Below, one piece after another: positions 7,702 to 42,339 of a DNA stretch of 42,531 bases; position 1 is the stretch's first letter, and each line of letters starts with the position of its first letter. This stretch comes from an uncultured Desulfobacterales bacterium. Its GTDB lineage: Bacteria > Desulfobacterota > Desulfobacteria > Desulfobacterales > C00003060. The notes under the pieces are model-generated. The model did not search any database. It saw only the letters and a list, made by a program, of their open reading frames with translations, and was not told the DNA's origin. The stretch is from positions 1 through 42,531 of the forward strand of contig CAZHHS010000001.1 in assembly GCA_964532395.1 (NCBI GenBank), given 5' to 3'. A program made the translations under genes and the position numbers.

Positions 7702-7738
7702 TTGCCGCGGAAATACGCAATTGAAAGAGGATACGTGA

Positions 7739-9493: not shown

Positions 9494-9505
9494 GGAAATG
9501 GAAAA

Positions 9506-14259: not shown

Positions 14260-14261
14260 CC

Positions 14262-24258: not shown

Positions 24259-24261
24259 GTC

Positions 24262-24669
24262 ATGACTGATTTCGCCCAACTGGTAGTGGCAAAATACAAT
24301 TATTGGATCTACATTACGCTCATGATGATCGGCCTGTACGCAATCATCTCCAAGAATAATCTGGTCAAAAAGATCCTGGGCATGAACATCTTTCAAACAG
24401 CGATTATTCTTTTCTATGTCTCGATCGGGGCGAAAAAAGGGGCGACGATCCCTATTTTGGAACACGGCCACGGTCCGGCTCATGGGGCCGGTTCTCATGT
24501 GGTCCACGCGGCGGACTACATGAATCCCTTGCCTCATGTGCTCATGCTCACCGCCATCGTGGTCGGTGTGGCAACGTTGGGTGTGGCATTGGCCCTGGCC
24601 CTTAAGGTGTACAGGCATTACCATACCTTGGAAGAAGATGAAATCCTGGCCCAGATAAGGAAGAAATGA
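24262..24669 (+). CDS. mrpC: Mrp/Mnh subunit C (NuoK-like)
   Basis: 135 aa. IIS..NLVKKILGMNIFQTA and NPLPHVLMLTAIVVG are typical MnhC blocks. It carries an unusual His/Gly-rich loop. Confidence 0.75.
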   Translation: MTDFAQLVVAKYNYWIYITLMMIGLYAIISKNNLVKKILGMNIFQTAIILFYVSIGAKKGATIPILEHGHGPAHGAGSHVVHAADYMNPLPHVLMLTAIVVGVATLGVALALALKVYRHYHTLEEDEILAQIRKK

Positions 24670-26168: not shown

Positions 26169-26170
26169 TA

Positions 26171-27646
26171 ATGGAAACGGTCGTATCCATCAAGCCGTTG
26201 CTGGCTGTTCTTGTTTCTCTTCTAGTCACCCCCATACTGGCTTCAAGTCGAGCGCCGAATGTCCGGGAGATGTGGACATTTGTCGCGGCAGGGGTAAAAT
26301 TCCTGCTGGTTTTGTCCATGCTGCCGGTCATCCTTAATGGTACCCAAATCGTATATACGGTCGCTGAAGTGATACCGGGAGCCGCCATTAAATTCAAGGT
26401 CGATTCCTTTGGTATGCTCTTCGCTCTGGTCTCTTCGTCCTTGTGGATTGTAACCTCGGTCTACTCCATAGGTTATATGCGTGGGCTGAAGGAACACAGC
26501 CAGACCCGCTATTTTTGTTTCTTCGCCTTTGCACTGTCCGCCACTATCGGGGTTGCCTTTGCCGGAAACTTGTTAACGATGTACCTCTTTTATGAGATGC
26601 TTTCCTTGGCTACCTATCCCTTGGTCACGCATCATCAAGACCATGAGGCGCGAAGCTCGGGGCGCAAATATCTCTTATACATTGTGGGAACCTCGATCGG
26701 ACTGGTCTTGCCGGCTATGCTAATTTGTTACGATCTGGCAGGGACCCTGGAATTTGGGACGCAGGGTTTTTTAGCCGGAACGGGGGCGTCCAAGTCTTTG
26801 ATGGCGGTGCTGCTGGTTCTTCTCATCTTCGGGTTTGCAAAAGCGGCCATTATGCCCTTTCATTCATGGCTTCCTGCAGCGATGGTCGCACCTACGCCGG
26901 TTAGTGCTTTGCTGCATGCAGTGGCTGTTGTGAAAGTCGGTGTTTTCAGTGTTGTTCGAGTCATAACAGAAGTGTTTGGGACTGATTTGCTGTTTTCTTT
27001 AAATTTCAGCCCCATTATCCTCTTTTTCGCCTCTGCTACCATTCTTGTGGGCTCACTCATCGCCCTGTCTCAAGACAATCTTAAACGCCTTTTGGCTTTT
27101 TCCACCATCGCACAGCTTTCATACATTGTACTCGGCGTGGGGTTGCTCTCCCCTCTGGGAATGACCGGTGGAATGCTCCATATCGCCATGCACGCATTTG
27201 GCAAGATCACTCTCTTTTTTTGTGCCGGAGCGATCTTCGTGGCTACCGGCAAAAAGAACATCAGCGAGATGATCGGTATCGGCAGGAGAATGCCGGTGAC
27301 CATGGGCGCCTTTTTTATCGCTTCTCTAAGCATTACCGGTGTCCCACCCGGCGGCGGCTTCATTAGTAAATGGTATTTGGTCCTGGGGGCACTGCAAGCG
27401 CAACAAGTAGCGGTTCTTGTGGTGCTCCTGGTGAGCTCATTTCTGAATGCCTGTTACTTTCTGCCGATCGTCTACAAAGCATTTTTTTGTCCTCCGAAAG
27501 AGGTTATGTTTAAAGGCGGATTTCAAGAGGCCCCTGTTTTCTGTGTGGTTCCTCTGGTAATAACGGCCGTGATTTCCATCATTCTGCTCCTTTTTCCGCA
27601 ACCGTTTTTGCAGTTGGCCACAATGACCGTGCAAGGCTTGATGTAA
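26171..27646 (+). CDS. mrpD: antiporter-like subunit 2 (MrpD/NuoM family)
   Basis: 491 aa. FYEMLSLATYPLV, PFHSWLPAAMVAPTPVSALLHAVAVVKVG and AFSTIAQLSYIVLG are classical NuoL/M/N-MrpA/D motifs. Confidence 0.85.
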   Translation: METVVSIKPLLAVLVSLLVTPILASSRAPNVREMWTFVAAGVKFLLVLSMLPVILNGTQIVYTVAEVIPGAAIKFKVDSFGMLFALVSSSLWIVTSVYSIGYMRGLKEHSQTRYFCFFAFALSATIGVAFAGNLLTMYLFYEMLSLATYPLVTHHQDHEARSSGRKYLLYIVGTSIGLVLPAMLICYDLAGTLEFGTQGFLAGTGASKSLMAVLLVLLIFGFAKAAIMPFHSWLPAAMVAPTPVSALLHAVAVVKVGVFSVVRVITEVFGTDLLFSLNFSPIILFFASATILVGSLIALSQDNLKRLLAFSTIAQLSYIVLGVGLLSPLGMTGGMLHIAMHAFGKITLFFCAGAIFVATGKKNISEMIGIGRRMPVTMGAFFIASLSITGVPPGGGFISKWYLVLGALQAQQVAVLVVLLVSSFLNACYFLPIVYKAFFCPPKEVMFKGGFQEAPVFCVVPLVITAVISIILLLFPQPFLQLATMTVQGLM

Positions 27647-27657
27647 GGATATTTACC

Positions 27658-27798
27658 ATGACCGAAGAAAGAAGCGACGAAATAGAAGGCAAGATGGCGC
27701 TGTCCCATGCACCCGTGCCACCCTACAGGAAGGTCTTTTTTATAGCCATTACGGTGGGGGTGCTCTATCTCGGGCTGATTCTTTTTATGACCATTTGA
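27658..27798 (+). CDS. small single-TM protein (46 aa, not in supplied ORF track)
   Basis: ATG 27658 to TGA 27796-27798. The product is MTEERSDEIEGKMALSHAPVPPYRKVFFIAITVGVLYLGLILFMTI. It is tightly packed between two operon genes on the same strand. Confidence 0.45.
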   Translation: MTEERSDEIEGKMALSHAPVPPYRKVFFIAITVGVLYLGLILFMTI

Positions 27799-27841
27799 AA
27801 TAAATAGAGTCCGCCTCGTTTTGAAAGACAGGAAAACGAAA

Positions 27842-28102
27842 ATGAAAGAAGAAAAACAAGAGGGGAAAAGATATCTATTTGATGACCCCAAAAACGTGAA
27901 TAGACTTTTGGGGACTTTTTACGCCTCATTGATGGTGCTTCTCCTGGTGGAGTTCGTGGTTCATAAGCACCCGCATTTTCCTTGGGAAAAGTGGCCGGAA
28001 TTCTATTGTGTGTATGGTTTTGTTGCCTGTGTGGTATTGGTTATCGTGGCAAAATATATCTTGCGCCCTCTGGTTATGAGACGAGAGGACTATTATGATT
28101 AG
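27842..28102 (+). CDS. small two-TM membrane protein of unknown function
   Basis: 86 aa from ATG 27842 (the ORF track starts at TTG 27821). Two hydrophobic helices flank HKHPHFPWEKWPEFY. It overlaps the next gene by 8 nt. Confidence 0.5.
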   Translation: MKEEKQEGKRYLFDDPKNVNRLLGTFYASLMVLLLVEFVVHKHPHFPWEKWPEFYCVYGFVACVVLVIVAKYILRPLVMRREDYYD

Positions 28103-29864
28103 TACCGTTCCCCCCGCTGCCATATTTATCGTCGGAGGGTTGTTGGTTCCTTTCTTTAAGGGTAAGTGGAAAAGTGCGTTCCTGTTGCTCATTCCAGTTG
28201 TCGGATTTCTTAACCTGATTCACATACCGGAGGGAACCCATTGGGCCGTTGATTTCATGGGCTATAACCTGGTCTTTGGAGAAGTGGACAGGCTGAGCCT
28301 CGTATTCGGCTACATTTTTCACCTCATTACCTTTATAGCCCTTCTTTACGCCCTTCACGTGACAGACGACCTGCAACATGTGGGGGGACTGATCTATGCG
28401 GGGAGTTCCTTGGGGGTCGTCTTTTCGGGAGACCTTTTCTCTTTCTTCATCTTCTGGGAAACGCTTACCTTCAGCTCCGTATTATTGATTTGGACGCGAA
28501 GAACAAAGGCGTCTACAGCTGCCGGCTACAGATATGCCTTGGTCCATGTCGTGGGAGGGCTGTTCCTGCTGGCGGGGATCGTATTTTACGTCATTGAAAA
28601 GGGCTCCATCGAATTCGGATATATTGGATTGGACGGCCTGGCCAGTTATTTGATTTTTATCGGTTTCGGCATCAACTGTGCCTGGCCCATTCTCCACCCG
28701 TGGCTAACCGATGCCTATCCTGAAGCAACCATTACGGGAGCCATATTCTTGAGCGCTTTTACCACCAAGACAGCAGTCTATGCGCTGGCCAGGGCATTTC
28801 CCGGCACGGAGGCACTGATATGGATAGGAGCTCTCATGACGGGCTTTCCTATCTTTTACGCGGTCATCGAAAACGATCTCCGACGGGTTCTTGCCTACAG
28901 CCTGATCAACCAGGTGGGATTTATGGTCTGTGGTATCGGTATCGGCACGGCTCTTGCCATCAATGGCGCCGTGGCCCATGCCTTCAATGATATCTTGTTT
29001 AAAGCCCTGCTGTTTATGTCCATGGGGGCTGTTATGTACCGAACGGGTAAGATCAACGGAACCGCCTTGGGCGGACTGTACAGGACCATGCCCTTGACCT
29101 GTATTTTCTGTATGGTCGGGGCGGCATCCATATCCGCTTTTCCCCTGTTTAGCGGTTTTGTGAGTAAGTCCATGGTCATGGATGCGGCCGGGAAAGGTCA
29201 TATGCCGATTATATGGTTTGTCCTGCTTTTTGCTTCGGCCGGTGTATTCCATCACGCAGGCATCAAGATACCGTTTTTCGCATTTTTCGGCCATGATTCC
29301 GGTATGCGGCCCAAGGAAGCACCACTACATATGTTGCTGGCCATGGGTATTACCGCATTTTTGTGTATCTTTATCGGCTCTTTCCCCGGTCCTTTATACA
29401 GCTTGCTTCCCTATCCGGTCGATTATGAACCCTACACGATGGCTCATGTCGTCGGACAGACCCAGATACTATTTTTCTCGGCCCTGGCCTTTACCCTGCT
29501 GTTGCTTTCCGGAATATATCCGGCGGAAATGCGGTGTGTCAATCTGGACGCCGACTGGTTCTATCGTAAAGGGGGACGGCTTTTGTTCGGGGTGTTGGAT
29601 AATGTGTTCAACGGCATTAACAAGGCCGGAGAAGTGTTTGCTCGAGGGGTGGCCGGGGCTTTGGGCAGGCTATCCAGAAACGTTCCCGAGATAATTCTAC
29701 TCATAGTCATGGTTCCGTTATGGACTGCCGGTGGGGCAAAGGGAGAAAAACTCCAGGGGAAAATTGTGCGTGCGCGTGCCGCTCTGGAAACCGGAACGGC
29801 ACCCGTAGGCATCAGTGCGGCGGTGGCTACTATTTTTTTGGTTTTTCTTTTCGTTTTGATCTGA
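28095..29864 (+). CDS. antiporter-like subunit 3 (MrpA/MrpD/NuoL family) with C-terminal extension
   Basis: 589 aa. Proton_antipo_M-type core (FIFWETLTFSSVLLIW, LAYSLINQVGFMV, HAFNDILFKALLFM). A ~110-aa C-terminal tail ends in a final hydrophobic helix. Confidence 0.75.
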   Translation: MISTVPPAAIFIVGGLLVPFFKGKWKSAFLLLIPVVGFLNLIHIPEGTHWAVDFMGYNLVFGEVDRLSLVFGYIFHLITFIALLYALHVTDDLQHVGGLIYAGSSLGVVFSGDLFSFFIFWETLTFSSVLLIWTRRTKASTAAGYRYALVHVVGGLFLLAGIVFYVIEKGSIEFGYIGLDGLASYLIFIGFGINCAWPILHPWLTDAYPEATITGAIFLSAFTTKTAVYALARAFPGTEALIWIGALMTGFPIFYAVIENDLRRVLAYSLINQVGFMVCGIGIGTALAINGAVAHAFNDILFKALLFMSMGAVMYRTGKINGTALGGLYRTMPLTCIFCMVGAASISAFPLFSGFVSKSMVMDAAGKGHMPIIWFVLLFASAGVFHHAGIKIPFFAFFGHDSGMRPKEAPLHMLLAMGITAFLCIFIGSFPGPLYSLLPYPVDYEPYTMAHVVGQTQILFFSALAFTLLLLSGIYPAEMRCVNLDADWFYRKGGRLLFGVLDNVFNGINKAGEVFARGVAGALGRLSRNVPEIILLIVMVPLWTAGGAKGEKLQGKIVRARAALETGTAPVGISAAVATIFLVFLFVLI

Positions 29865-30497: not shown

Positions 30498-31652
30498 TTA
30501 AAGAACCCCTTTGAGGTAGACGAAGAAGGTAGTTCCTTTCCCGCTGGTGGAAGACACTTTGACTTCGCCACCATGTTCTTCCACGATTTTTTGGGTGATG
30601 AGTAGCCCGAGTCCCGTCCCTCGCCCCTCCTTGGTACTGAAAAAGCGGGAGAAGAGTTTTTCTTGAACCTCTTGCGTCATTCCCATGCCGTTGTCGGATA
30701 CTTCAAAGACCAGTATCTTTTCTTCGTTTTTCTCCACCCGTGTTCGCACCGTAACCTGCCAGTTTTTTGAAGTGTCGGGATCGAAAATGCAGGCATCAAT
30801 GGCATTAGAAACCAAATTGAGGAGGACCCGATGTATACCCGATTTGTCCAGTTGGGCCCGTTCGACCGTCGGGTCCAAGTCGGTGTTCAATGTGACTTGA
30901 TGTTCTGCGGCGTAGTCTTTGACCAGGTCTAATACATCCGATACGATTTCCTTGGGATTACACTCCGTGGGTTCCGGCTTTCTGTCTTTGGAATATGTCA
31001 GCAAGTCCATGACCAGCTCGGATACTCGTTCAACATTTCGGCTGACTACACGCCAGCCCTCGCGCAGCATCTTCGGCTTATCCTTCTCCAGCCCCACATT
31101 CACCATGTACATCCCCCCCCGCAAACCGGTGAGGATATTCTTAATGTAGTGGGCCAAGCCCGCCACCGTCTCGCCGATGGTGGCCAGCCGTTCATTGCGA
31201 ATGACGTCCTCCTGGGCTTTTTCGAGATCGATCTTGCAGGCTTCGACCTTGTCCTCGAGGTTCTCCGTATAATCCCTCAGCTGTCGGGCCATGGTAAGTT
31301 TTTTTTCGGCCCTTTCCAGTGACAGCATCAGGACTTCATCACGTATCGGTTTGGTGATAAAATCCGAGGCCCCGTTTTGAAGCGCCTGTACGGCCGAATC
31401 CATGTCCCCGTGGCCGGTAATGACGATGACTTCGGTTTCGCTACCGGACTCATTGATTCGCTTGAGCACCTCAATGCCGTCTATTCCGGACATTTTGATA
31501 TCCGTGATGACGATTTCGGGTGACTCCTGCGCGAAGATCTCAAGTCCCTCCCGACCGCTTTGTGCCGTAAGGACTTCATATCCTTCGCTGGTCAGGCTAA
31601 GTTCCAACATTTCCAGGACCGGTTTTTCATCGTCAATGATGAGCAGTTTCAT
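30498..31652 (-). CDS. hybrid receiver-histidine kinase (REC + HisKA + HATPase)
   Basis: 384 aa from ATG 31650-31652. REC motifs LIIDDEK, VITDIKMSGIDG, VITGHG and FITKP. H-box VAGLAHYIKNIL, and ATPase boxes NLVSNAIDA, DNGMGM and GTGLGLLIT. It overlaps the upstream kinase gene by 20 nt. Confidence 0.85.
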   Translation of the reverse strand: MKLLIIDDEKPVLEMLELSLTSEGYEVLTAQSGREGLEIFAQESPEIVITDIKMSGIDGIEVLKRINESGSETEVIVITGHGDMDSAVQALQNGASDFITKPIRDEVLMLSLERAEKKLTMARQLRDYTENLEDKVEACKIDLEKAQEDVIRNERLATIGETVAGLAHYIKNILTGLRGGMYMVNVGLEKDKPKMLREGWRVVSRNVERVSELVMDLLTYSKDRKPEPTECNPKEIVSDVLDLVKDYAAEHQVTLNTDLDPTVERAQLDKSGIHRVLLNLVSNAIDACIFDPDTSKNWQVTVRTRVEKNEEKILVFEVSDNGMGMTQEVQEKLFSRFFSTKEGRGTGLGLLITQKIVEEHGGEVKVSSTSGKGTTFFVYLKGVL

Positions 31653-33909
31653 CCTTGGACTCCCCTTGTCGTCGAACAATTGGAAATATAACCCTAAAGG
31701 TGGTCCCCTCATCCAGGGTGGAGTCAACTTCTATGTCTCCATTAAAATCTTTCACCAGATTGAAGCTGATAGACAGTCCCAAGCCGGTCCCCCGTCCGAC
31801 CTGCTTGGTCGTAAAGAAGGGTTCGAATATCTTTTGCTCGGTTTGTTCGGACATTCCCTCTCCCGTGTCGGAAACCAGGGCCACCACGTATTCTCCCTCT
31901 TGCCGGGTTGATATGGTCAGTTTCTTTTCCCGGTCCGAACCGACCGCCTCCATGGCATCACGCGCGTTGGTTACCAGGTTTAAAAAGACCTGTTCCAGCC
32001 GGTTTTTGTCCCCTTGGATGTCAGGCAAGTCCTCCGCCAGGTCAAGATCCACCTTGATATTGCGCAAGTTCAACTGTTGGCCAAGCATCGTGAATACATC
32101 ACGGATCGGTTCATTCAGATTCATCGGGTAAACATGAAAATCACTTTTTCGCCCGAATTCTCTCAAATGATTGATGATGTTACTCGACCGGGCGACCTGT
32201 TCACTGATGTTGCGGCTTACCGTCAATAGCTGTTCCGGGGAAATCTCTTGGCCTTTCTTGATCATTTTGGCCAAGAAATCGGCTCCCACTTGTATGGCGT
32301 TCAGGGGTTGGTTGATCTCATGGGCGATCCCTGTGGCCATTTCGCCCAAGGTGGCCATCTTGCTTGCCTGGGTGAGTTTGGCATCCTGTTCCAGACGCCG
32401 CGTTACGTCCACGGTGCGCACAATCAATGTGCCGCCGGAGGTGCCGTTCTCCGCATCCCGGAGTTTTCCGGAACGGGCGTGAAGGTTTATCACGAAATTG
32501 TCTCCGTTACGCTTTTTCGCCCAGACTTTGGGTACAAAGACATAGACGTCCTGTGGGGCTTGCTCCAGTTCCCCCCATACCCGTTTGGCCTCTTCTTCAT
32601 CGAGTAAATCGAGAAACGACCTTCCCAGGAGATCCTCATGTTCATACTGATAGGTTGCGCCTGCAGAATTGTTCACGTCCAGGATCTTTCCGGAATCCCA
32701 ATCTACGGTGAACAAGGGATTGGGATCGTTGTTGAACAGGAGGCGATATTTCTCCTCGCTGGCTTTGACCTCTTCTTCTATCTTTAACCGGTCTTGGACT
32801 TCCTGCTTGAGTTTTCGGTTGGCCACGATAAGTTCCGCGGTCCGTTCCTTCACCCGTTGCTCGAGTTCGTCGCGCGCCTTTTGGAGCTCTTCTTCCGCAA
32901 TATGCCGGGCGGAAATGTCCACGACATTGCCTAAGATGGCCGGTTTGCCGTGGTATTCGATGCGGGAGTTACGACGCTTAATCCAAATGGTTTCCCCGTT
33001 CTTTTTGAGACCCCTGGCCTCGTATTCAGACGGGACGGTATGACCTTTCAGGCGTCGTTGTCGGGTTTCTTTGACGAGTTTCCGGTCGTCGGGATGAACG
33101 AAATCGAGCACGTCCATGCCTTCCAACTCATCGCGGGCATAGCCGAAAATGTCGGCGAACCGTTTGTTGGCGAACTGGATTTTTTCATGCTGGTCGATGT
33201 AAATGCCGATGAGCGAATTCTCCACCAAGGTGCTGTATTTTTCTTCCGACTCCCGAAGGGCTTTTTCCGCCTGCCGTCGTTCCGCGATCTCGTTGGATAC
33301 ACTTTGAATCGTTTCATTGGTTACTTTGGCCAACGATTGGAGTAGTTCCAACTGAGAGAACCCGGATACCCTGGCGTCCAGATTCCCTTTGGAGACACGG
33401 TGCAGCACATCGAAGTGCTCAGCCAACCCGATAGCAAAATCATGGGAAAGATTAACAATTTCTCCCAAGTTTTCTGCCGTTGTATTGACCAGGTGTTTCA
33501 GTTTAGAGAGGAGTTCCAGCCTGGATTCTTCCGATACCCGGGCTTCGGGATTTCCCGAGGAGATCTGCTTCAGCGCCTCGAAGACCTCGGAAAGACCCAG
33601 GGCCAATTCCATGCTGAGGTCTTCCAGCTCTTGGTCCCGTTCTTCGACCATTTCCCGAAAGGCGGTGAATTGCTTATGTACCACTTTCAGCGTTTCTTCC
33701 ATGGAATCGAGGTCGATGTTTCTTTTGAACGGTTCGCAGTCCAGGCAAAGCTCGATTTTTTCCAAAAACCTTCCCTGAATTTCGTTTCTGCAAAAGGTTC
33801 CCGGAACCAGCCAACATTTGTATGTTTGGGTTTTATATGCCGGGCATTCCGTTTCCCCGCAATTAAGAACCTCCCAGCATTTTACTTTCTCCGACTTGGA
33901 CTCGTTCAT
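31633..33909 (-). CDS. multi-PAS sensor histidine kinase with N-terminal Cys-rich two-CW-type domain
   Basis: 758 aa with no TM helix. N-terminus KCWEVLNCGETECPAYKTQTYKCWLVPGTFC...CLDC. Two to three PAS blocks, H-box ATGIAHEINQPLNAI, and ATPase boxes NLVTNARDA, DTGEGM and GTGLGLSIS. Confidence 0.85.
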   Translation of the reverse strand: MNESKSEKVKCWEVLNCGETECPAYKTQTYKCWLVPGTFCRNEIQGRFLEKIELCLDCEPFKRNIDLDSMEETLKVVHKQFTAFREMVEERDQELEDLSMELALGLSEVFEALKQISSGNPEARVSEESRLELLSKLKHLVNTTAENLGEIVNLSHDFAIGLAEHFDVLHRVSKGNLDARVSGFSQLELLQSLAKVTNETIQSVSNEIAERRQAEKALRESEEKYSTLVENSLIGIYIDQHEKIQFANKRFADIFGYARDELEGMDVLDFVHPDDRKLVKETRQRRLKGHTVPSEYEARGLKKNGETIWIKRRNSRIEYHGKPAILGNVVDISARHIAEEELQKARDELEQRVKERTAELIVANRKLKQEVQDRLKIEEEVKASEEKYRLLFNNDPNPLFTVDWDSGKILDVNNSAGATYQYEHEDLLGRSFLDLLDEEEAKRVWGELEQAPQDVYVFVPKVWAKKRNGDNFVINLHARSGKLRDAENGTSGGTLIVRTVDVTRRLEQDAKLTQASKMATLGEMATGIAHEINQPLNAIQVGADFLAKMIKKGQEISPEQLLTVSRNISEQVARSSNIINHLREFGRKSDFHVYPMNLNEPIRDVFTMLGQQLNLRNIKVDLDLAEDLPDIQGDKNRLEQVFLNLVTNARDAMEAVGSDREKKLTISTRQEGEYVVALVSDTGEGMSEQTEQKIFEPFFTTKQVGRGTGLGLSISFNLVKDFNGDIEVDSTLDEGTTFRVIFPIVRRQGESKDETAHH

Positions 33910-33970: not shown

Positions 33971-34134
33971 ATTGCTGGAAAAAACTACCGGATGATGCGC
34001 TTACATAACATACCGGAACGAAGCGATCAAAGGTTTTCCCGCAGACGCAAAAGCAGCCTGTGAAACACTTTCCGGCGCGAGAGCGAACGCATCATAGTTC
34101 ATGCCCGATAGTTGGTACCGAAAGGAGGAAAAGG

Positions 34135-34569
34135 ATGTCCAAGAAAATTCTGATTGTGGATGACGAGCCAGACATCATTACTTTTCTCAGTGCGCTTCTT
34201 GAGGAGAACGGTTATGAAAGCGTGAGTGCCAAGGACGGGACGGAGGGGTTGGAACTGTTGCGGAAAGAGAAACCGGACTTGGTGTTGCTCGATCTCATGA
34301 TGCCGAAGAAAAGCGGGATTACGATGTTTCAGGAGCTGAGAAAAGATCCTGAACTGAGTGATATCCCGGTTATCGTCGTAACCGGTGTGTCCGAAGTTAC
34401 AGGCGTTGATTTTCGAAACTTTATGTTCAAACAGCCGATGCGGGATGAAAAGAAGTTTGTGGAGACGACCGGGCTTTCAAAATACACGGTTCCGGACGGC
34501 TACATCGAAAAGCCGATTGACCCGGATGAATTGATCAAGGTGGTTAACGAGACCTTGAACGCGCGTTAA
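34135..34569 (+). CDS. single-domain response regulator (receiver)
   Basis: 144 aa from ATG 34135, with AGGAGG at 34123-34128. Motifs ILIVDDEPD, VLLDLMMPKKSG, VVTGVS and YIEKP. Confidence 0.85.
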   Translation: MSKKILIVDDEPDIITFLSALLEENGYESVSAKDGTEGLELLRKEKPDLVLLDLMMPKKSGITMFQELRKDPELSDIPVIVVTGVSEVTGVDFRNFMFKQPMRDEKKFVETTGLSKYTVPDGYIEKPIDPDELIKVVNETLNAR

Positions 34570-34616
34570 CCAAGCCGGAAAATCGGGGTGTGCCCCCGTA
34601 TGGGCGCTTTCCACGA

Positions 34617-34639
34617 GGTCCGGACCTGGGGTCCGGACT
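34617..34639 (+). terminator. possible intrinsic terminator hairpin
   Basis: GGTCCGGACC-tgg-GGTCCGGAC can form an 8-9 bp GC-rich stem. The trailing ttcattgtttc is only a weak U-tract. It lies 48 nt after the REC stop. Confidence 0.3.
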
Positions 34640-34753
34640 TCATTGTTTCAAACGGGCAAGGCGTTCCCCAAAAACCGGGCCCCCCTATCTGCGGGTGTAA
34701 TTGTCGCCTTTCCGCTGAACCGCCTAAGTGCCGCCTCCCGGGAAAATCTCTTC

Positions 34754-34981: not shown

Positions 34982-35353
34982 ATGACATCAAAGATGGAAC
35001 TGTTGTTTATTTACGGCCTAGCGGCCATCTTGCTCATTATCGGCGTTGTGTGTTACGCATCGTTTTCCCAGGAAGTTCCCGATGAACCGGTAAGGCTGGT
35101 ATTTGACACAAGTGCCGGTAAGGTTCTGTTTGATCATCAAACCCATTCGTCCGCGGACGGTTACGGCTTTTACTGCGAAGATTGTCATCACTACGAGCAA
35201 GATGACGGCGGGATGGGGTGTGACGGACCTTACTGCCACGGTGCGGACACGGAGCCCACCCGATCGGACGCCTTCCATGCCAATTGCCAGGGCTGTCATG
35301 AAGAAAGCGGGGCCGGTCCGGTTGAATGCGGTACGTGCCACTTGCAGTATTAA
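34982..35353 (+). CDS. membrane-anchored tetrahaem cytochrome c (c3/class III-like)
   Basis: 123 aa with an N-terminal hydrophobic anchor LLFIYGLAAILLIIGVVCYA. Four haem motifs: CEDCH, CDGPYCH (Cx4CH), CQGCH and CGTCH. The soluble part has exactly 8 His, enough for four bis-His haems. Confidence 0.8.
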   Translation: MTSKMELLFIYGLAAILLIIGVVCYASFSQEVPDEPVRLVFDTSAGKVLFDHQTHSSADGYGFYCEDCHHYEQDDGGMGCDGPYCHGADTEPTRSDAFHANCQGCHEESGAGPVECGTCHLQY

Positions 35354-35387: not shown

Positions 35388-36680
35388 ATGATAAAAAGAC
35401 CGTTTCTGGGAATTGTGAAGCCGAAACTGAATTACAACGTGGTTCCGGATGAAGTTCAAGAGCTTAAAGTGCCAAAGGATGTGACCCTGCTGTTAAGAGA
35501 CGACAATCCCGGAGCGGGCGGGGATCTCGAGGTCGGGGCCAAGGTGAAAACCGGCCAGCGATTGAGTAAGTCCGCCGAAAGCTCAACCTATGTCATTTCT
35601 TCCGTAACCGGGACCATCTCCAATCTATTTCCCTATGTTGGCTCTTTCGGGGAAGTTTATCCTTACGGAGGCATATTTGAACAATCGTATACCGCCATAA
35701 CCATCGCTGCCGACGAAAAAGACGTATGGGACGATGAATATACGGGGGACGCCTCCCTGGACACCGCGCTTCGCTTCTTTGAATATCTACCGGGCAATCC
35801 TTCTTTCCGCGCCTTTGCCGATCCGAACACCGCCATACGGATGATCATCATATGCGGCCAGGACCAAGATTTGCTTTTGACCGCCAATCAGGCCGTCATT
35901 CAAAACGAGCTTGACGCCATCAAGACAGGTGTTAAAGCGCTCAAGGACATGACGGGCGTGGATCGAATTTTACTCACTGTTCCCGAGGGCATGGTGCAAC
36001 AAGCGATTTCGACCGGTGCGGAGGCGAAGGCCTTGAGCGCCGAATATCCGTCCGGCCTGCCACACATGATTATGAAAGACGTTGTGGGAACCGTAATACC
36101 GGAAGGTCACACACCGGCGGAGGCCGGGGCGTTCTTTATCAGTGCGGAAGCAGTTGCGGCCTTGGGGGCCTCTGTGGACACGGGCCGACTCTGCGTTACT
36201 AAGATGGTCAGCGTAGTTAGAAAAGGGGGAAAGGCCACCAACCTGAAAGTCAGAATCGGCACTCCGTTACGAGTGCTGCTTGGGGCCTGTGGTATTACCG
36301 TCAAAGATCGCGACCGGATGATCTTGGGTGGTCCGATGAGAGGGGTAGCTACCTACTCGGACGAACTGCCCATAGAACCCCAAACAGACGGCCTTGTGGT
36401 GCAAGATCAGCAGGAAAGCCCCTTGTTGGCGGATCATCCCTGCATCAACTGTGGTGAGTGCATTAAGATCTGTCCGGTTAAGATACCGGTAAACATGCTC
36501 ATTCGCTTTTTGGAAGCAAGCCTTTATGAAGATGCCAGAGATATGTATGAATTGGCATGTTGTATCGAGTGTGGCTTGTGTGCATATGTGTGTCCGTCCA
36601 GGATTCCAATTTTTCAGTATATTCAGCTGGCAAAGCGCGAACTGGACCTACGGGAAGCCGCGGAGGCAGAAAATGAATAG
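35388..36680 (+). CDS. rnfC: RnfC-like subunit with degenerate nucleotide/FMN-binding motifs
   Basis: 430 aa from ATG 35388. RnfC-type C-terminus with two [4Fe-4S] motifs (CINCGECIKICP, CIECGLCAYVCP) and ILGGPMRG. No GGAGFP-type loop is present. The upstream part of the long ORF overlaps the cytochrome gene and was trimmed. Confidence 0.7.
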   Translation: MIKRPFLGIVKPKLNYNVVPDEVQELKVPKDVTLLLRDDNPGAGGDLEVGAKVKTGQRLSKSAESSTYVISSVTGTISNLFPYVGSFGEVYPYGGIFEQSYTAITIAADEKDVWDDEYTGDASLDTALRFFEYLPGNPSFRAFADPNTAIRMIIICGQDQDLLLTANQAVIQNELDAIKTGVKALKDMTGVDRILLTVPEGMVQQAISTGAEAKALSAEYPSGLPHMIMKDVVGTVIPEGHTPAEAGAFFISAEAVAALGASVDTGRLCVTKMVSVVRKGGKATNLKVRIGTPLRVLLGACGITVKDRDRMILGGPMRGVATYSDELPIEPQTDGLVVQDQQESPLLADHPCINCGECIKICPVKIPVNMLIRFLEASLYEDARDMYELACCIECGLCAYVCPSRIPIFQYIQLAKRELDLREAAEAENE

Positions 36681-37650
36681 GGACTTGAGTGGTGAAAAGC
36701 TGGTTGTTTCTTATGCCCCCTACTGGCATGACGGCAGAACGGTTTCATCCAGGCACCGGCAGATGATGCTTGCTGCCCTTCCTGCAGTAATCATGGGAAT
36801 CAGCCAATATGGCAGTCCGGCGCTGGGTATGATCTCCCTGGCGACGGCGTCGGCCGTCATTTGGGAATTTATCATGAATTTGATGCTCGGCAAGCGTGTT
36901 TCCATCGGTGACGGAAGCGCGGCGGTAACCGGCCTCTTGTTGGGCATGCTGTTGCCTGCGACCGCGCCTTGGTGGATTGTCATTTTGGGCACATTCTTGG
37001 CGATCATCGTAGGCAAACAAATATTCGGCGGCCTCGGCCTCAACCCCTTAAATCCCCCCTTGCTTGCCTTGGCCATGCTGGTCATTTCGTTCGGAAGTAT
37101 CTTTGACTTCAATATGGCCCTACGTAATTACGAATTGGGGTTTGCCATGACCTATCCCCTTGCCGACTTGAAGGCCCTGGGAACGGCGGGCATAGCTCAT
37201 TTTAGTGTGGGTGACTTGTTTATGGGCAAGCAGATCGGCGGGGTCGGGTCCACTTTCGGGCTGGGACTGGTGATCGGAGGCATATACCTGATCCTGAGAG
37301 GGTACGTACGGTGGGAACTCTCCCTCTCTTTCTTGGCGGGTGTCTTCATCACGGCTTGGCTGTTTAATCTGTCCGATTCCACTGCGTACGCCGGTCCCCT
37401 GTTCCACTTATTTACCGGTTATACGTTGATCGCCGCATTTTTCCTGGTTCCGGAGGATTCCTCATCTCCGGTCAACTTTATTCCCATGCTGATATTCGGT
37501 GCCTTGGCCGGCGTCATGACCGTGTTGATTCGGAATGTGGGGGCCTACGTGGACGGCGTTCCCTTTTCGATCCTATTGCTGAATCTTGCCAACCCCCTAC
37601 TCGACAAAATTAGACCGAAAGCGGTTGGAAAGGTGGTTGAAAATGCGTGA
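36673..37650 (+). CDS. rnfD: RnfD (NqrB-like) membrane subunit
   Basis: 325 aa from ATG 36673, overlapping the rnfC stop. Polytopic. Blocks GDGSAAVTGLLLGMLLP, KQIFGGLGLNPLNPPL and TGYTLIAAFFLVPEDSSSP are typical of RnfD/NqrB. Confidence 0.8.
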   Translation: MNRDLSGEKLVVSYAPYWHDGRTVSSRHRQMMLAALPAVIMGISQYGSPALGMISLATASAVIWEFIMNLMLGKRVSIGDGSAAVTGLLLGMLLPATAPWWIVILGTFLAIIVGKQIFGGLGLNPLNPPLLALAMLVISFGSIFDFNMALRNYELGFAMTYPLADLKALGTAGIAHFSVGDLFMGKQIGGVGSTFGLGLVIGGIYLILRGYVRWELSLSFLAGVFITAWLFNLSDSTAYAGPLFHLFTGYTLIAAFFLVPEDSSSPVNFIPMLIFGALAGVMTVLIRNVGAYVDGVPFSILLLNLANPLLDKIRPKAVGKVVENA

Positions 37651-38224
37651 TATCATCCGGATGATCGTGGTTCTCGGCCTCCTGGCCGCATGTTCCGGCG
37701 CGTTGCTGGCGGCCGTTAAGTCCGGGACGGCGAAACAGATTGAGGTCCAGCAGCTTAAATTTGTAAAGGGGCCGGCCATAAAAGCGATTTTGGAAGGTGC
37801 AGCCAACGATCCCATTCAGGATCGATTCAAGCTCATGGACGGGGATACGGAACGGACGTTTTTTGTGGGCAAGTTTGAAAACAAACCGACGGCTATTGCT
37901 TACGAGACCTTTGGAAAGGGGTATGGTGGTGATATCGGCATCATGGTCGGGGTGGATCTCAAAACCGACCAACTCGTAGGGATAGGCATTACCACTCACT
38001 CTGAAACGCCCGGCTTGGGCGCCAGAGCCAAAACCGACCAGGAGTTCAAAAACAGTTTCCAGGGGCTTTCCTTAAAAGACCCTATCAAGGTTGATGATGT
38101 GGACGCCGTTTCCGGAGCAACCATTACGTCTAAAGGTGTGTGTACGGGGATTAACAACAGCGCCGATTTCTACGAACGATTGAAACCGAAAATTGTTGAA
38201 AAGGCGAAGTCCGTTACCGACTAG
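37643..38224 (+). CDS. rnfG: RnfG (NqrC-like) FMN-binding subunit
   Basis: 193 aa from ATG 37643, overlapping the rnfD stop. It has an N-terminal anchor. ETPGLGAR and the flavinylation motif DAVSGATITS (Dxx(S/T)GAT) are present. Confidence 0.85.
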   Translation: MRDIIRMIVVLGLLAACSGALLAAVKSGTAKQIEVQQLKFVKGPAIKAILEGAANDPIQDRFKLMDGDTERTFFVGKFENKPTAIAYETFGKGYGGDIGIMVGVDLKTDQLVGIGITTHSETPGLGARAKTDQEFKNSFQGLSLKDPIKVDDVDAVSGATITSKGVCTGINNSADFYERLKPKIVEKAKSVTD

Positions 38225-38235
38225 GGGGAGAAATA

Positions 38236-38850
38236 ATGGCCAAGACGATTGTTCAAGAATTCACCAAGGGGTTGTGGGAAGAGATCCCACCCTTCCGGCT
38301 GGTGTTGGGCCTGTGTCCGATTTTGGCGGTAACCAAATCCGTGGCAAATGGATTCGGCATGGGGGTGGCCGCCACCTTCGTACTGTTGTGTTCCAACGTT
38401 CTAGTCTCCGTGCTGCGATCCATAATCCCGGTTAAGGTTCGGGTGCCCTGTTTCATCATTATTATCGCTACCTTTGTTGTTGTGGTGGAGCTGGTGATGC
38501 AGGCGGTCGCTTATCCTTTGTTTCTGCAGCTGGGCATTTTCATACCGCTCATTGTGGTAAACTGTGTCATTTTGGGGCGCGCTGAAGCCTTTGCCTTCAA
38601 GAACCGTGTGACCTATGCGGCCGCAGACGGGCTGGGCATCGGTCTCGGGTTTACCCTTTCGCTGACCGCGGTTGGTGCCGTTCGCGAAATCCTGGGCAAT
38701 GGAACGGTTTCCATTCCTTTTACAGACCAAGTGATTCCGCTTTTCGGGCCCGCTTTTCAGCCCTTTACATTTATGGTGGAGGCGCCCGGGGCTTTTGTCT
38801 GTTTGGGCCTGATGCTGGGGTTGATGGACCTGGTGGGGAGTAAGGGATAG
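38236..38850 (+). CDS. rnfE: RnfE (NqrD-like) membrane subunit
   Basis: 204 aa. LVLGLCPILAVT and GIFIPLIVVNCVILGRAEAFA are hallmark RnfE/NqrD blocks. Confidence 0.85.
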   Translation: MAKTIVQEFTKGLWEEIPPFRLVLGLCPILAVTKSVANGFGMGVAATFVLLCSNVLVSVLRSIIPVKVRVPCFIIIIATFVVVVELVMQAVAYPLFLQLGIFIPLIVVNCVILGRAEAFAFKNRVTYAAADGLGIGLGFTLSLTAVGAVREILGNGTVSIPFTDQVIPLFGPAFQPFTFMVEAPGAFVCLGLMLGLMDLVGSKG

Positions 38851-38932: not shown

Positions 38933-39580
38933 ATGGGAGATTACATATTGCTGGCCATAAGCGCCATCCTGGTGAACAACATCTTGTTGATTCAGTATTT
39001 GGGCAATTGCCCCTTTCTGGGAACCTCCAAAAAGATGGAAACGGCCACAGGTATGGCTATGGCGGTGGTCTTCGTGCTGGCCATGGCCGGCATCGTTACA
39101 TGGATTTTGGAGATGGTGTTCCTTAAGCCGCTGGGTCTGGAATATATTCGAACGATCGTGTTTATCCTGGTTATCGCTTCGTTGGTCCAATTCGTGGAGT
39201 TGTTCCTCAAAAAGACCATACCGGCGTTGTATGCCGGTCTCGGGATTTTCCTGCCTCTTATTACGACCAACTGTGCGGTCATGGGGGTATGTTTGATCAA
39301 TGTCAAGGAGGAGTATAATTTTCTCGAGATGCTGGTTTCTTCTTTGTCCTATCCTGCCGGTTTTGGTTTGGCCCTTATTCTTTTCGCCGGCCTCCGGGAG
39401 CGCATCAATGTGGGACGGGTGACGGCCCGAAAAAGGACCGGCGTTGCCTTGATCGACAAAAGGATGCGTGACCGGGTGACCATCGGGCGGGTGCCGGGGC
39501 CCTTACAAGATGTGGCCATTGCATTGGTGACGGCGGGATTCATGTCGCTGGCCTTTCTGGGATTCAAGGGAATGATTTAG
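38933..39580 (+). CDS. rnfA: RnfA (NqrE-like) membrane subunit with basic loop insertion
   Basis: 215 aa. YLGNCPFLGTSKK and GIFLPLITTNCAVMG are hallmark RnfA blocks. About 22 extra residues sit between RER and the VPGP...ALVTAGFMSLAF end. Confidence 0.85.
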   Translation: MGDYILLAISAILVNNILLIQYLGNCPFLGTSKKMETATGMAMAVVFVLAMAGIVTWILEMVFLKPLGLEYIRTIVFILVIASLVQFVELFLKKTIPALYAGLGIFLPLITTNCAVMGVCLINVKEEYNFLEMLVSSLSYPAGFGLALILFAGLRERINVGRVTARKRTGVALIDKRMRDRVTIGRVPGPLQDVAIALVTAGFMSLAFLGFKGMI

Positions 39581-39587
39581 GAGATAG

Positions 39588-41681
39588 ATGATGATAGAAG
39601 CCTTGCTTGTCATGTTGGGATTGGGGGCTGTTTCGGGAACCCTTCTGGGGATTGCCTCAAAGGTGTTTTACGTTTGGGAAGATCCGCGGATTGCCGAAGT
39701 CGAGGACTGTCTGGCCGGTGCCAATTGCGGGGGGTGTGGATATACCGGGTGCAGCGCTTGTGCCGCCGCTATTGTGTCCGGGGAAGCCCCGGTGAGCGCT
39801 TGCATCGTCGGCGGAACCGGTTCCGCAACCCGCGTGGCCGCGGTCATGGGCATGGAAGTGGGGGCTGCCGAACCGTTGACGTCTGAAAATACCTGCACGG
39901 GCGGGTTCCGGGCACCGGAAAAGTACTATTATATGGGCATCAGTGATTGTCGCGCCGCCGCCCAACTCTACGGGGGCGCCAAGGCGTGTACCGTCGGGTG
40001 TCTGGGATACGGTACGTGTGTCAAGGCATGTCTGTTCGACGCTTTGGAGATGGGCCCGGACAACGTCCCGGTGGTGAAGGTTGAAAATTGTGTCGGTTGC
40101 GGCGCTTGCCAGTCCGTATGTCCCAAAGGGATCATGAAAGTAAGGACGCCCTCTCAGCGGGTCTTGCGATTTCACGAGCGAACGGATCGGTTGGCGCCCT
40201 GTCGGCAGACCTGTCCTGCCGAAATCAATATTCCGCAGTATATCGACCATATTAAACATGAAGAATATGATCAGGCCTATCTGACGATTATGGAACGAAA
40301 TCCCATGCCCCTTTCCATCGGTCGGGTTTGCCCGCATCCCTGTGAGGATGCATGCCGCCGGGCGGTGGGTGGCGACGATCCCGTTTCCATTAACCAGCTG
40401 AAACGGTTTTGTTCCGACTGGGTCTTTGATAACAATGCGCCCGTTAATATTCCGGTGGCACCGGATACGGGATTCAAGGTGGCCATTGTCGGGGGCGGCC
40501 CCAGTGGTTTGAGTGCGGCATTTTTCTTAAGGCGGTTGGGTCACCAAGTGAAGATCTATGAGTGGATGCCGGAGCTCGGGGGCATGATTTACTATGGGAT
40601 TCCGGAATATCGCCTGCCCAAAAAGATCCTGGGTCAGGATGTGCAACGGATCCTCGACCTGGGGGTTCAAGTCAAAACGGGGGTAAAGTTCGGCGTGGAC
40701 TTCGATTTGGAATCCTTGGTGGGCGGCGGGTATGATGCCGTGCTTACATCTATCGGTGCATGGAATCACGCTTCGGCACGCATTCCCGACGAAGACAAAG
40801 TCAAAGGGGTTATTCCGGCGACGATCTTTTTGCGACGCCAAGGGCTGGGGGAGGCCAATCCGATCGGCAAGCGGGTCGGTGTCATCGGGGGCGGCAATGT
40901 GGCCATGGACGCCCTGCGGACCAGCGTGCGCTTGGGGGCCGAAAAAGTCTACTGCCTCTACCGAAGAGAGATCAAGGACATGCCGGCGAACCAGGTGGAA
41001 ATCGAGGCGTGTAAACATGAAGGCATCGAATTCATTACGCTGTGTACACCGACCAAGTTCGTCACGGACGACGACGGGAACCTGACCGGTATCGAGTATC
41101 TGAAAAACGAACTCGGGGAACCCGACGCCAGCGGGCGGCAAAAACCGGTGCCTGTCGAAGGGTCGGAAACGGTGCTTCCTCTGGACAACTTTATCTTGGC
41201 GATCGGTCAGGTAACGGATTCATCGTTTGTCAATGAGGAAGGCGCCGCTGTGGCCAGACTTTCAACAAAGAAAGGGGCCATTGTCTGTGACTCGGATACG
41301 CAGCAAACCGATATTCCGTATGTCTTTTCAAGCGGGGACTCCGCCGGACCGCCGGGACTTCTGGTCGCGGCCATCGGGGCGGGGAGGCGGGCCGCCCGGG
41401 GAATCCACAAGTATCTCATGGGCGAGGAAATGGCCTTCCCCGAGACCAGGCTTCGAGTCGATCCGGGGCGGATGACCGGGCATATCCCCGGGACCATATT
41501 CGAACATGTGGAAGGTGTTCAGAAGAAGGGCCGTATCGGCCAACCGGAACTGGAACCGGGTTCATATGAACGACAGCATACGTTTGCCGAGGTGGATTTA
41601 ACCATCAGTGAAGCAGATGCCTTAAAAGAGGCAAATCGGTGTATGCGGTGCTGTTTGACCTGTTACGACCGTGACATATAA
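39588..41681 (+). CDS. rnfB: RnfB fused to GltD/NfnB-like FAD-NAD(P)H oxidoreductase
   Basis: 697 aa with AGGAG RBS. The N-terminal part has a TM anchor, the RnfB Fe-S motif CGGCGYTGC, and ferredoxin motifs CTVGCLGYGTCVKACLFDAL and CVGCGACQSVCP. From about aa 200 it reads CRQTCPAEINIPQY...CPHPCEDAC, VAIVGGGPSGLSAA and VGVIGGGNVAMD. Confidence 0.8.
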   Translation: MMIEALLVMLGLGAVSGTLLGIASKVFYVWEDPRIAEVEDCLAGANCGGCGYTGCSACAAAIVSGEAPVSACIVGGTGSATRVAAVMGMEVGAAEPLTSENTCTGGFRAPEKYYYMGISDCRAAAQLYGGAKACTVGCLGYGTCVKACLFDALEMGPDNVPVVKVENCVGCGACQSVCPKGIMKVRTPSQRVLRFHERTDRLAPCRQTCPAEINIPQYIDHIKHEEYDQAYLTIMERNPMPLSIGRVCPHPCEDACRRAVGGDDPVSINQLKRFCSDWVFDNNAPVNIPVAPDTGFKVAIVGGGPSGLSAAFFLRRLGHQVKIYEWMPELGGMIYYGIPEYRLPKKILGQDVQRILDLGVQVKTGVKFGVDFDLESLVGGGYDAVLTSIGAWNHASARIPDEDKVKGVIPATIFLRRQGLGEANPIGKRVGVIGGGNVAMDALRTSVRLGAEKVYCLYRREIKDMPANQVEIEACKHEGIEFITLCTPTKFVTDDDGNLTGIEYLKNELGEPDASGRQKPVPVEGSETVLPLDNFILAIGQVTDSSFVNEEGAAVARLSTKKGAIVCDSDTQQTDIPYVFSSGDSAGPPGLLVAAIGAGRRAARGIHKYLMGEEMAFPETRLRVDPGRMTGHIPGTIFEHVEGVQKKGRIGQPELEPGSYERQHTFAEVDLTISEADALKEANRCMRCCLTCYDRDI

Positions 41682-41796
41682 ATAGGTGGATTATTACATT
41701 GGGGGATTGGCTTCACGGTGTTGAGACCGGGGTTAATCCCCCGAATTGTGTGGGGACGTTGAACCGAAACTCAGAGCGAAGGCGGGTATATATCCA

Positions 41797-42339
41797 ATGA
41801 ATGAGGCAAATGGAACGATCCCGGATAACCCCCCGAGCGATACTCAGGAAACCGACGCAGGCGGCGTGGTCATCCTGGGTATCGGGAACCTACTCTTGTC
41901 GGATGAGGGTATCGGGGTTCACGTGGCCAACCGATTGCTGGAGATGGATCTTCCTCCGGGCGTGCGGGTCATCGAAGGCGGAACCGACGGCTTTCGATTA
42001 ATGAATGTCGTGACAGGGGCTGACCGGGTGGTGGTGGTCGATGCTGTCAAAGGGGGGGGAGAGCCGGGGTCCATATATCGGTTTAACATTGAGGACGCCC
42101 CGTCATCACCGGACACCTTCAAGACCTCGGTTCACCAGATCGGTATACTTGAAGTGATTCACTTTTCGGAATTTCTGGGCAAAACGCCTGAGGCCACCGT
42201 CATCGGTGTGGAACCCAAGTCGATCGAGATGTCCATGGAGCTTTCGCCGGAGATTCAGGAGAAGGTGCCACGGGTCATCGAGTTGGTCCTTGAAGAAGTC
42301 AACAAGTATCTGTCCGAAACAGGCAAGTCCGCGTCTTAG
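41797..42339 (+). CDS. hydrogenase maturation endopeptidase family protein (HyaD/HybD/HoxM-like)
   Basis: 180 aa from ATG 41797. VVILGIGNLLLSDEGIGVHV, VVVVDAV and SVHQIG match the Glu/Asp-Asp-His metal-ligand blocks of this family. Confidence 0.7.
   Translation: MNEANGTIPDNPPSDTQETDAGGVVILGIGNLLLSDEGIGVHVANRLLEMDLPPGVRVIEGGTDGFRLMNVVTGADRVVVVDAVKGGGEPGSIYRFNIEDAPSSPDTFKTSVHQIGILEVIHFSEFLGKTPEATVIGVEPKSIEMSMELSPEIQEKVPRVIELVLEEVNKYLSETGKSAS

Follow-up and report, generated by a model that had tools for sequence, protein, structure and literature searches.

The large rnfB gene at positions 39588..41681 (+ strand) of the DNA analysed here, a stretch of 42,531 nucleotides from an uncultured Desulfobacterales bacterium (assembly GCA_964532395.1, contig CAZHHS010000001.1; henceforth the window), codes for an RnfB core fused to a GltD/NfnB-like iron-sulfur (Fe-S) flavoprotein of the type that binds flavin adenine dinucleotide (FAD) and nicotinamide adenine dinucleotide (phosphate), NAD(P)H. 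It is almost certainly the large RnfB of an Rnf2-type (Desulfobacula toluolica Tol2-type) Rnf complex. The architecture is already known and not new, the window protein being its orthologue from an uncultured Desulfobacterales lineage. The best overall explanation, which joins this identity to the electron path proposed below, is in our judgement moderately likely.

The large-RnfB complex was reportedly first noticed in the Tol2 genome paper. Under the names D. toluolica Tol2-type or Rnf2 complex it is described by Dörries et al. 2016 (PMC5109826) and in Science Advances 2025 (PMC11887813), with an RnfB of ~700 amino acids that has an NAD-binding part, an RnfC lacking the domain for NADH and flavin mononucleotide (FMN), and a gene for a cytochrome c3. 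Residues 1-200 of the large RnfB resemble small RnfB and the other ~500 form a pyridine-nucleotide-disulfide oxidoreductase; the complex occurs in all Desulfobacteraceae genomes as part of the family core genome (PMC11887813). Its subunits are constitutively abundant in proteomes, the cytochrome itself being mostly undetected (PMC5109826, PMC11887813). D. multivorans and D. autotrophicum HRM2 have Rnf2 together with an A. woodii-type Rnf1, and form both (PMC5109826). The Rabus group proposed that electrons pass from Rnf2 to cytochrome c3 and on to Qrc (PMC11887813). Both papers call the remaining subunits 'very similar' and leave the mode of action to experiment (PMC5109826, PMC11887813). We found no biochemical or structural work on an Rnf2-type complex in the literature, and a 2025 review on RNF and NQR leaves sulfate reducers, fusions, NADPH and the Rnf2 complex all unmentioned. 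The window genes show the sequence features by which Rnf2 is defined: an RnfB of 697 residues with a Fer4_20 and a Pyr_redox_2 domain, an RnfC whose NADH/FMN loops are lost and a cytochrome c3, with the common gene order rnfCDGEAB and no essential difference from the Tol2-type complex. The permuted StnC-type nature of the flavoprotein module, its NADPH-type residues, the replacement of the polyferredoxin tail, the Thr-to-Tyr change in RnfD and the occurrence outside Desulfobacterota, all set out below, were not found in PMC5109826 or PMC11887813.

The gene is an uninterrupted open reading frame (ORF) of 697 amino acids in the ORF list. Its ATG start lies 8 bases past the rnfA stop codon, with a GGAG-like ribosome-binding site, GGAGATAG, just ahead of it. 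A first-pass annotation, made from the letters and the ORF list, had placed the start of its finding at 40185; this is codon 200 of the ORF and coincides with the domain boundary. The layout of the protein is as follows.

39588..40184, + strand: RnfB core (residues 1-199), clostridial-type, with transmembrane anchor, FeS domain, cysteine-rich segment and dicluster
40185..41681, + strand: flavoprotein module (residues 200-697), assigned as permuted GltD/StnC-type from PDB sequence matches, Foldseek and invariant cofactor residues
40194-40433, + strand: Fer4_20 part of the module (residues 203-282), from Pfam
40473-41384, + strand: FAD/NAD(P)H Rossmann pair (residues 296-599), Pfam Pyr_redox_2
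41550-41663, + strand: C-terminal tail of the module (residues 655-692) with C685, C688 and C692, aligning with the NfnB N-terminus

The in-frame fusion claimed in the first-pass annotation stands: all the motifs it quoted are found in this single ORF, and Pfam and NCBIfam agree. The RnfB core carries CGGCGYTGC (C47-C55), CTVGCLGYGTCVKAC (C134-C148) and CVGCGACQSVCP (C168-C178), and the flavoprotein part CRQTCPAEINIPQYIDHI, CPHPCEDAC, VAIVGGGPSGLSAAFFL, GGMIYYGIPEYRLPK, VGVIGGGNVAMDA and GDSAGP. Pfam places the FeS domain PF04060 on residues 42-73 (1.3e-10), a Fer4 4Fe-4S dicluster on 137-182, Fer4_20 on 203-282 (1.6e-22) and Pyr_redox_2 on 296-599 (4.3e-24). RnfB models of NCBIfam cover residues 2-194, the best being the Methanosarcina RnfB model, and PRK12771, a GltD-like 'NAD(P)-binding protein', covers residues 197-692 (1.6e-142).

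The same annotation had warned that a sequencing error could have created the read-through. A protein-cluster search over 5.8 billion proteins (NCBI, JGI, ENA and Logan assemblies) returned more than 120 homologous clusters of 687-712 amino acids, 53-97% identical over 97-100% of the query, and PF04060, PF14691 and PF07992 are present in all these full-length clusters. A genome scan with one genome per species found 72 loci (numbered L001-L072) with the same full-length architecture, down to 35% identity. The closest, 97% identical, belongs to the uncultured Desulfobacterales metagenome-assembled genome (MAG) binchicken_co17_432; a large group of loci at ~53% identity comes from Desulfatitalea, Desulfosarcinaceae and Desulfobacteraceae, and further full-length loci, 35-39% identical, form a group from MAGs whose labels read Aminicenantes, Spirochaetota/Leptospirales and Neomarinimicrobiota. 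In a 50%-identity representative library, ~8 clusters among the best 150 matches hold the full-length fusion; the remaining ones are mostly StnC/NfnABC-type proteins of 1000-1270 amino acids aligned over residues ~185-693 alone. The junction DNA contains no homopolymer run and the alignment of homologues is continuous across the rnfB/flavoprotein boundary. Conservation of the read-through in over 120 clusters and in 72 independent loci rules out a sequencing or assembly error at the junction, and the unremarkable junction DNA agrees with this. The idea that the long ORF is an artefact joining rnfB to a neighbouring gltD-like gene is further contradicted by the module itself, which requires both its C-terminal tail and the preceding dicluster, as does its paralogue encoded at 9506-11599 in the window; we give this idea practically no credence.

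The RnfB core is ordinary, as had been said of residues 1-190. Its residues 1-27 are hydrophobic and form a helix (2-26) in the AlphaFold2 model. The FeS domain has cysteines C47, C50, C55 and C72, and the cysteine-rich segment and dicluster have C103, C121, C134, C138, C144, C148, C168, C171, C174 and C178; all 14 are invariant in 126 large-RnfB sequences. Residues 2-193, the extra cysteines 103 and 121 included, are collinear with A. woodii RnfB 1-197 (9eri_B, 1e-51) and with C. tetanomorphum RnfB 8-195 (7zc6_B, 7e-48). The two clostridial proteins go on with 1-2 more ferredoxin domains (FdIII and beyond), which have no counterpart in the window RnfB. For C. tetanomorphum, ferredoxin is proposed from the structure to enter at the outermost cluster of the RnfB FdII+III domain (PMC9588780). 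Judging from these alignments, the permuted flavoprotein occupies the place of FdIII and replaces the polyferredoxin tail of clostridial RnfB.

Protein sequence comparison assigns the module more precisely than the GltD/NfnB-like label given at first. The best PDB matches, spanning residues ~186-690, are the large subunits of the NfnABC complexes of Caldicellulosiruptor (9bov_A, 1e-108) and Thermococcus sibiricus (9n5u_A, 1e-105) and Sporomusa ovata StnC (8oh5_C, 9e-92); NfnB (4ylf_B, 2e-84), GltD and dihydropyrimidine dehydrogenase rank after them. Foldseek with the AlphaFold2 model (pLDDT 72, pTM 0.61; Rossmann core above 85, Fe-S parts and tail poorly defined) gives the same ranking, the fold matching NfnB, GltD and dihydropyrimidine dehydrogenase. 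The usual N-terminal cysteine pair of the Fer4_20 domain is absent from its normal place. It is not genuinely missing: the HMMER alignment places the tail at ~655-688 (...F-x-EV...A-x-x-EA-x-RC-x-x-C) on NfnB of T. maritima (residues 9-42) and of P. furiosus (residues 6-46). Because the C-terminal tail thus aligns with the N-terminus of NfnB, the module is, on alignment, circularly permuted like StnC and the NfnABC large subunits, the pair having moved to the tail.

The cofactor residues are intact on alignment, which removes the other doubt raised in the first-pass annotation. C205, C209, C248, C252, C256, C685, C688 and C692 are invariant in the 126 large RnfBs; the predicted ligands of two [4Fe-4S] clusters are seven cysteines and K272, all invariant, and C692 in the tail is invariant as well. 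In 30 diverse homologues the FAD loop G302-x-G304-P-x-G307 (VGGGPSG), the NAD(P)H loop G434-G435-G436-N-x-A439 (GGGNVAMD, 434-441), Y458-R459-R460 and G583-D584 do not vary. K272 aligns with K170 of StnC, the lysine ligand of the FAD-proximal cluster, where NfnB carries Glu. The invariant Asn468 aligns with Arg333 of P. furiosus NfnB; this Arg near the bifurcating FAD, an extended N-terminus and an nfnA gene directly upstream mark bifurcating NfnB (PMC12221290). No nfnA gene lies upstream of rnfB, the adjoining gene being rnfA, and the operon codes for no NfnA-like [2Fe-2S]/FAD protein. The FAD of StnC was shown not to bifurcate, relaying electrons from NADPH along a cluster chain. By these sequence comparisons the module belongs to the permuted, non-bifurcating StnC/NfnABC lineage: the fold, the nucleotide loops and the cluster ligands that made it GltD/NfnB-like are all there, and what did not hold is an assignment to NfnB proper. 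The YRR motif is common to StnC, which binds NADPH in its structure, to NfnB and to the NfnABC proteins, all of which bind NADP(H), and points to NADPH as the likelier substrate, where the literature assumes NADH. The distant Aminicenantes/Spirochaetota clade carries YPFSxEE in place of YRR...MPAN and VIxxxRLP in place of GIPEYRLP, so that its pyridine-nucleotide preference may differ from that of the window clade.

The earlier observation that the same module forms the C-terminal part of the 9506-11599 protein was borne out: the two are 38% identical over 524 residues (E = 7e-97), the alignment starting already in the last ferredoxin motif that precedes the module. The 9506-11599 protein, also of 697 amino acids, combines [2Fe-2S] and Nqo3-type Fer4 parts with the permuted GltD module, and is the last of three adjacent genes (7201-11599), after a NuoE/HydC-like [2Fe-2S] protein (7201-7701) and a NuoF/HydB-like FMN/NADH protein (7739-9493). 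By sequence the trio looks like a compact Stn/NfnABC (Bfu-type) transhydrogenase devoid of the FdhF-like half of StnC.

The large rnfB is the last gene of an operon that reads cytochrome c3-rnfC-rnfD-rnfG-rnfE-rnfA-rnfB. The other six genes are listed here.

34982..35353, + strand: membrane-anchored tetrahaem cytochrome c3-like protein of 123 amino acids, first gene of the operon (Cytochrom_CIII, 3.3e-10)
35388..36680, + strand: RnfC variant of 430 amino acids, matching PDB chains 8ahx_C, 9eri_C and 7zc6_C at E = 4e-36 to 2e-31
36673..37650, + strand: RnfD variant of 325 amino acids without the flavinylation threonine, matching 7zc6_D, 8ahx_D and 9eri_D
37643..38224, + strand: RnfG of 193 amino acids with an intact SGAT flavinylation motif (DAVSGATITS)
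38236..38850, + strand: RnfE of 204 amino acids, 60-98% identical in related loci, with Cys motifs LGLCP and VVNCV
38933..39580, + strand: RnfA of 215 amino acids with motifs LGNCP and TTNCA, from alignment with E. coli RsxA and related loci

Searching with the seven window proteins (tblastn), the order cytochrome-C-D-G-E-A-B is found in nearly all of the 72 loci that have sufficient upstream DNA, distant phyla included; the same search gave no cytochrome match in L028 and L034. The complete operon is found outside Desulfobacterota at 35-39% identity in L054-L064 and L069, the group whose MAG-record labels are given above. A response-regulator gene (34060-34569) is separated from the cytochrome gene by a strong terminator-like hairpin (34615-34641) of 12 pairs, 8 being G-C, with a T-rich tail behind it; the rnf transcription unit probably has its 5' boundary here. 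Apart from this hairpin, promoter and terminator scans gave background-level counts.

The partner subunits depart from canonical Rnf in a consistent manner. The cytochrome has haem motifs CEDCH, CDGPYCH, CQGCH and CGTCH behind an N-terminal hydrophobic helix. In RnfC the Complex1_51K domain scores 28.4 bits, under the 31.2-bit cutoff; the canonical NuoF-type loop GMGGATFPTHVK (GGAxFP) is deleted or replaced by LPGNPSF, the canonical loop NAAECEPYLTCD (AECEPY) is replaced by ICGQDQDLLLTAN, and both [4Fe-4S] motifs (CxxCxxCxxxC) are kept, as CINCGECIKICP and CIECGLCAYVCP. This pattern is shared by every RnfC encoded beside a large RnfB, in all phyla, whereas canonical RnfCs retain the loops. In RnfD the sequence TTATPL of C. 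tetanomorphum, or SQATPL of E. coli RsxD, is AMTYPL, the Tyr aligning with C. tetanomorphum Thr153, the covalent FMN attachment site (PMC9588780). Across ~50 related large-RnfB operons this position holds Tyr, Phe, His, Asn, Asp or Ser, and Thr in none. RnfD matches RnfD chains at ~1e-47 to 1e-43 and NqrB at ~1e-17; the best NqrB match, 9ud3_B, has Tyr at the flavinylation site like the query and looks like a T236Y variant. A drift of RnfD towards NqrB with quinone reduction is thus unsupported, RnfD chains matching better by ~30 orders of magnitude in E-value. The RnfG motif survives as S/T/G-GAT in nearly all loci of this kind; only L058 departs from it, with TGAS. An RnfC without its GGAxFP and AECEPY loops and an RnfD without its FMN-carrying threonine uphold the view that the electron path differs from that of textbook Rnf.

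RnfA of the window has a 24-residue insertion at ~158-181 (...RERI-NVGRVTARKRTGVALIDKRMRDRVT-IGRV...), in the loop ahead of the last helix, that looks as if the flanking motif had been partly duplicated. L002 has the insertion too, and L006 and L014, whose rnfA matches have equal length, probably do; all other relatives and E. coli RsxA lack it.

Rnf and NQR pass electrons from the RnfB/NqrF site to the RnfAE/NqrDE iron centre, on to the periplasmic flavin of RnfG/NqrC and back through RnfD/NqrB. In NQR the RnfB position is taken by the NADH dehydrogenase NqrF, and the homologue of RnfC, NqrA, has no cofactor (PMC9588780). In the Rnf of M. acetivorans NAD(P) is not used and RnfG hands electrons to a co-transcribed cytochrome c. 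On this background we privilege an ion-coupled electron transfer between NAD(P)H, perhaps also ferredoxin, at RnfB and cytochrome c3 at RnfG, a proposal built on sequence comparison to which we give about an even chance. The StnC-type, non-bifurcating module, probably NADPH-specific in the window clade, would take a hydride onto its FAD, which would release single electrons through the two [4Fe-4S] clusters of the module, one presumably ligated by three cysteines and Lys272 and the other completed by the cysteine pair of the tail. These clusters would feed the RnfB dicluster and then the mobile N-terminal cluster of RnfB, from which electrons would reach the iron centre of RnfA/E and the covalent FMN of periplasmic RnfG, coupled to translocation of Na+ (or H+). 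Since RnfD lacks the flavinylation threonine and RnfC the NADH/FMN site, the most likely exit from RnfG would be the membrane-anchored tetrahaem cytochrome c3, which could supply sulfate reduction by way of the periplasmic/menaquinone network (Qrc, followed by Qmo/Dsr). Run in reverse, the same path would consume the ion gradient to form NADPH with electrons from the periplasm. Ferredoxin may be a second donor, docking on the RnfB clusters. A more specific version remains tentative, with chances somewhat below even: Rnf2 would be an 'NQR-like' rewired Rnf, a Na+/H+-coupled NADPH:cytochrome c3 oxidoreductase that captured a StnC-type input, discarded the flavins of the RnfD/RnfC branch and sends electrons out from RnfG-FMN to a dedicated cytochrome.

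Several considerations weigh against the proposed path. Each of its steps is deduced from sequence, and the cluster ligands are assigned by alignment, the AlphaFold2 model being of moderate quality. The preference for NADPH over NADH depends on YRR, a motif that the distant Aminicenantes/Spirochaetota clade lacks. The lost threonine is no proof of a lost flavin, which RnfD could hold non-covalently. The haem potentials of c3 are typically low, so that the step from NADPH to c3 would by itself leave little drive for pumping unless downstream acceptors pull. Lastly, the strict conservation of both RnfC [4Fe-4S] motifs argues for a redox role and a cytoplasmic partner, not for a vestigial subunit.

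This last point is the starting ground for a scheme with the ends exchanged, which takes the complex for a ferredoxin:NADP+ (or NAD+) oxidoreductase: reduced ferredoxin, or some other Fe-S protein of the cytoplasm, would deliver to the exposed [4Fe-4S] clusters of the FMN-less RnfC, the FAD at RnfB would reduce NADP+ and the cytochrome would be accessory. Motifs kept despite the loss of the NADH/FMN site make a redox role at RnfC probable; the ferredoxin-docking polyferredoxin tail of clostridial RnfB is absent, and the separate Stn/NfnABC-like transhydrogenase of the window indicates that the ferredoxin/NADPH balance matters to the organism. However, an exergonic flow from RnfC to RnfB opposes the canonical direction of pumping (PMC9588780) and would import ions, the RnfG-RnfD-RnfC leg needs an RnfD with the flavinylated threonine that is missing here, and the conservation of the cytochrome c3 gene across phyla would be left unexplained. 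We regard this scheme as unlikely. An NQR-like NAD(P)H:menaquinone oxidoreductase, with electrons running from RnfG through RnfD to quinone and the cytochrome as a side branch, would suit the layout, which has a dehydrogenase at the RnfB/NqrF site and no NADH site in RnfC/NqrA, and menaquinone would provide the driving force that cytochrome c3 cannot. The far better match of RnfD to RnfD (~1e-47) than to NqrB (~1e-17) and its lost threonine speak against it, as do the two clusters kept by RnfC, of which NqrA has none, and the lack of any sign of a quinone site; its probability appears low.

NfnB-like bifurcation would split the electrons of NADPH at the FAD: the Rnf membrane chain would receive one, and the second would be driven uphill to ferredoxin. 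It finds support in the NfnB chains, 37-38% identical to the module with a TM-score of 0.8 relative to the target, and in the conserved FAD-contacting Arg of GIPEYRLP (R342). Yet the nearest relatives are StnC and the large subunits of NfnABC, the StnC flavin having been shown non-bifurcating; Asn468 stands in place of Arg333, a StnC-type Lys and not the Glu of NfnB is at the FAD-adjacent cluster, and an NfnA-like [2Fe-2S]/FAD partner or domain, which could give the flavin a second exit, is absent. On the evidence from Arg333, Glu/Lys and NfnA we reject this reading as very improbable.

Comparison with characterized systems delimits what is shared with Rnf2. StnC (8oh5) and the large subunits of NfnABC (9bov, 9n5u) have the same permuted NADPH/FAD module with two [4Fe-4S] clusters, Lys ligand, YRR and RCxxC tail, at 32-45% identity over ~500 residues. 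StnC has in addition a [2Fe-2S] domain at its N-terminus and a C-terminal half resembling NuoG/FdhF, and its HydBC-like partners are soluble; the window protein instead has a membrane-anchored RnfB ahead of the module, ends at 697 just past the tail and is encoded among rnf genes, so that the homology is confined to the module. NfnB, GltD and the N-terminal module of dihydropyrimidine dehydrogenase share the Fer4_20 and Pyr_redox_2 fold, the FAD/NADPH loops and two [4Fe-4S] clusters. The window protein differs from NfnB in that the N-terminal segment of the latter sits C-terminally, in the absence of NfnA and of Arg333, and in a Lys for the Glu/Gln cluster ligand. Na+-NQR is alike in layout, with a pyridine-nucleotide dehydrogenase at RnfB/NqrF feeding RnfAE/NqrDE and an RnfC/NqrA without NADH site, but NqrF has an unrelated fold (a plant-type [2Fe-2S] and an FNR-like FAD domain), Fe-S clusters are lacking in NqrA, and NqrB retains covalent FMN and reduces quinone. 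This likeness is therefore to be read as analogy, not homology. The M. acetivorans Rnf with MmcA likewise has a multihaem cytochrome c in its operon, no NAD(P) at RnfC and an RnfG proposed to reduce the cytochrome; it differs in having ferredoxin as sole donor, a polyferredoxin RnfB without flavoprotein fusion and methanophenazine as acceptor.

A large share of carbon oxidation in marine sediments is due to Desulfobacteraceae. Knowing the donors of Rnf2 (NAD(P)H, ferredoxin or both), its coupling to the cytochrome and its direction would supply a missing item in the energetics of complete-oxidising sulfate reducers and would show how the Rnf/NQR scaffold can be re-plumbed. If the NQR-like rewiring were true, Rnf2 would add a third functional class to the Rnf/NQR pumps, and would be the chief connection of cytoplasmic NADPH to periplasmic electron carriers in these bacteria. 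The new points at the sequence level, namely a module of NADPH-type and non-bifurcating character, the lost RnfD site and the occurrence in other phyla, yield testable predictions for a known but under-studied variant.

Other genes of the window accompany the rnf operon. A cluster for a Mrp/Mnh-type cation/proton antiporter (23305-29864; MnhB domain and three Proton_antipo_M proteins) lies ~5 kb upstream of it and is consistent with Na+-based energetics. Directly downstream of rnfB, at 41746-42339, is a gene for a HycI-type hydrogenase maturation protease (Pfam 9e-31). It follows rnfB, at varying distance, only in close relatives, and we rejected it as part of the rnf system for this reason; the hydrogenase genes would lie past the end of the window. 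PAS histidine kinases, response regulators and a sigma-54 activator are densely encoded at 31633-33909 (- strand), 11878-16607, 18667-19860, 20495-21577 (- strand) and 30498-31727 (- strand). A 758-residue kinase encoded just upstream of the rnf operon has a cysteine-rich N-terminus (CWEVLNCGETECP...CWLVPGTFC...CLDCEPF) that, from its sequence, could bind a metal or an Fe-S cluster.

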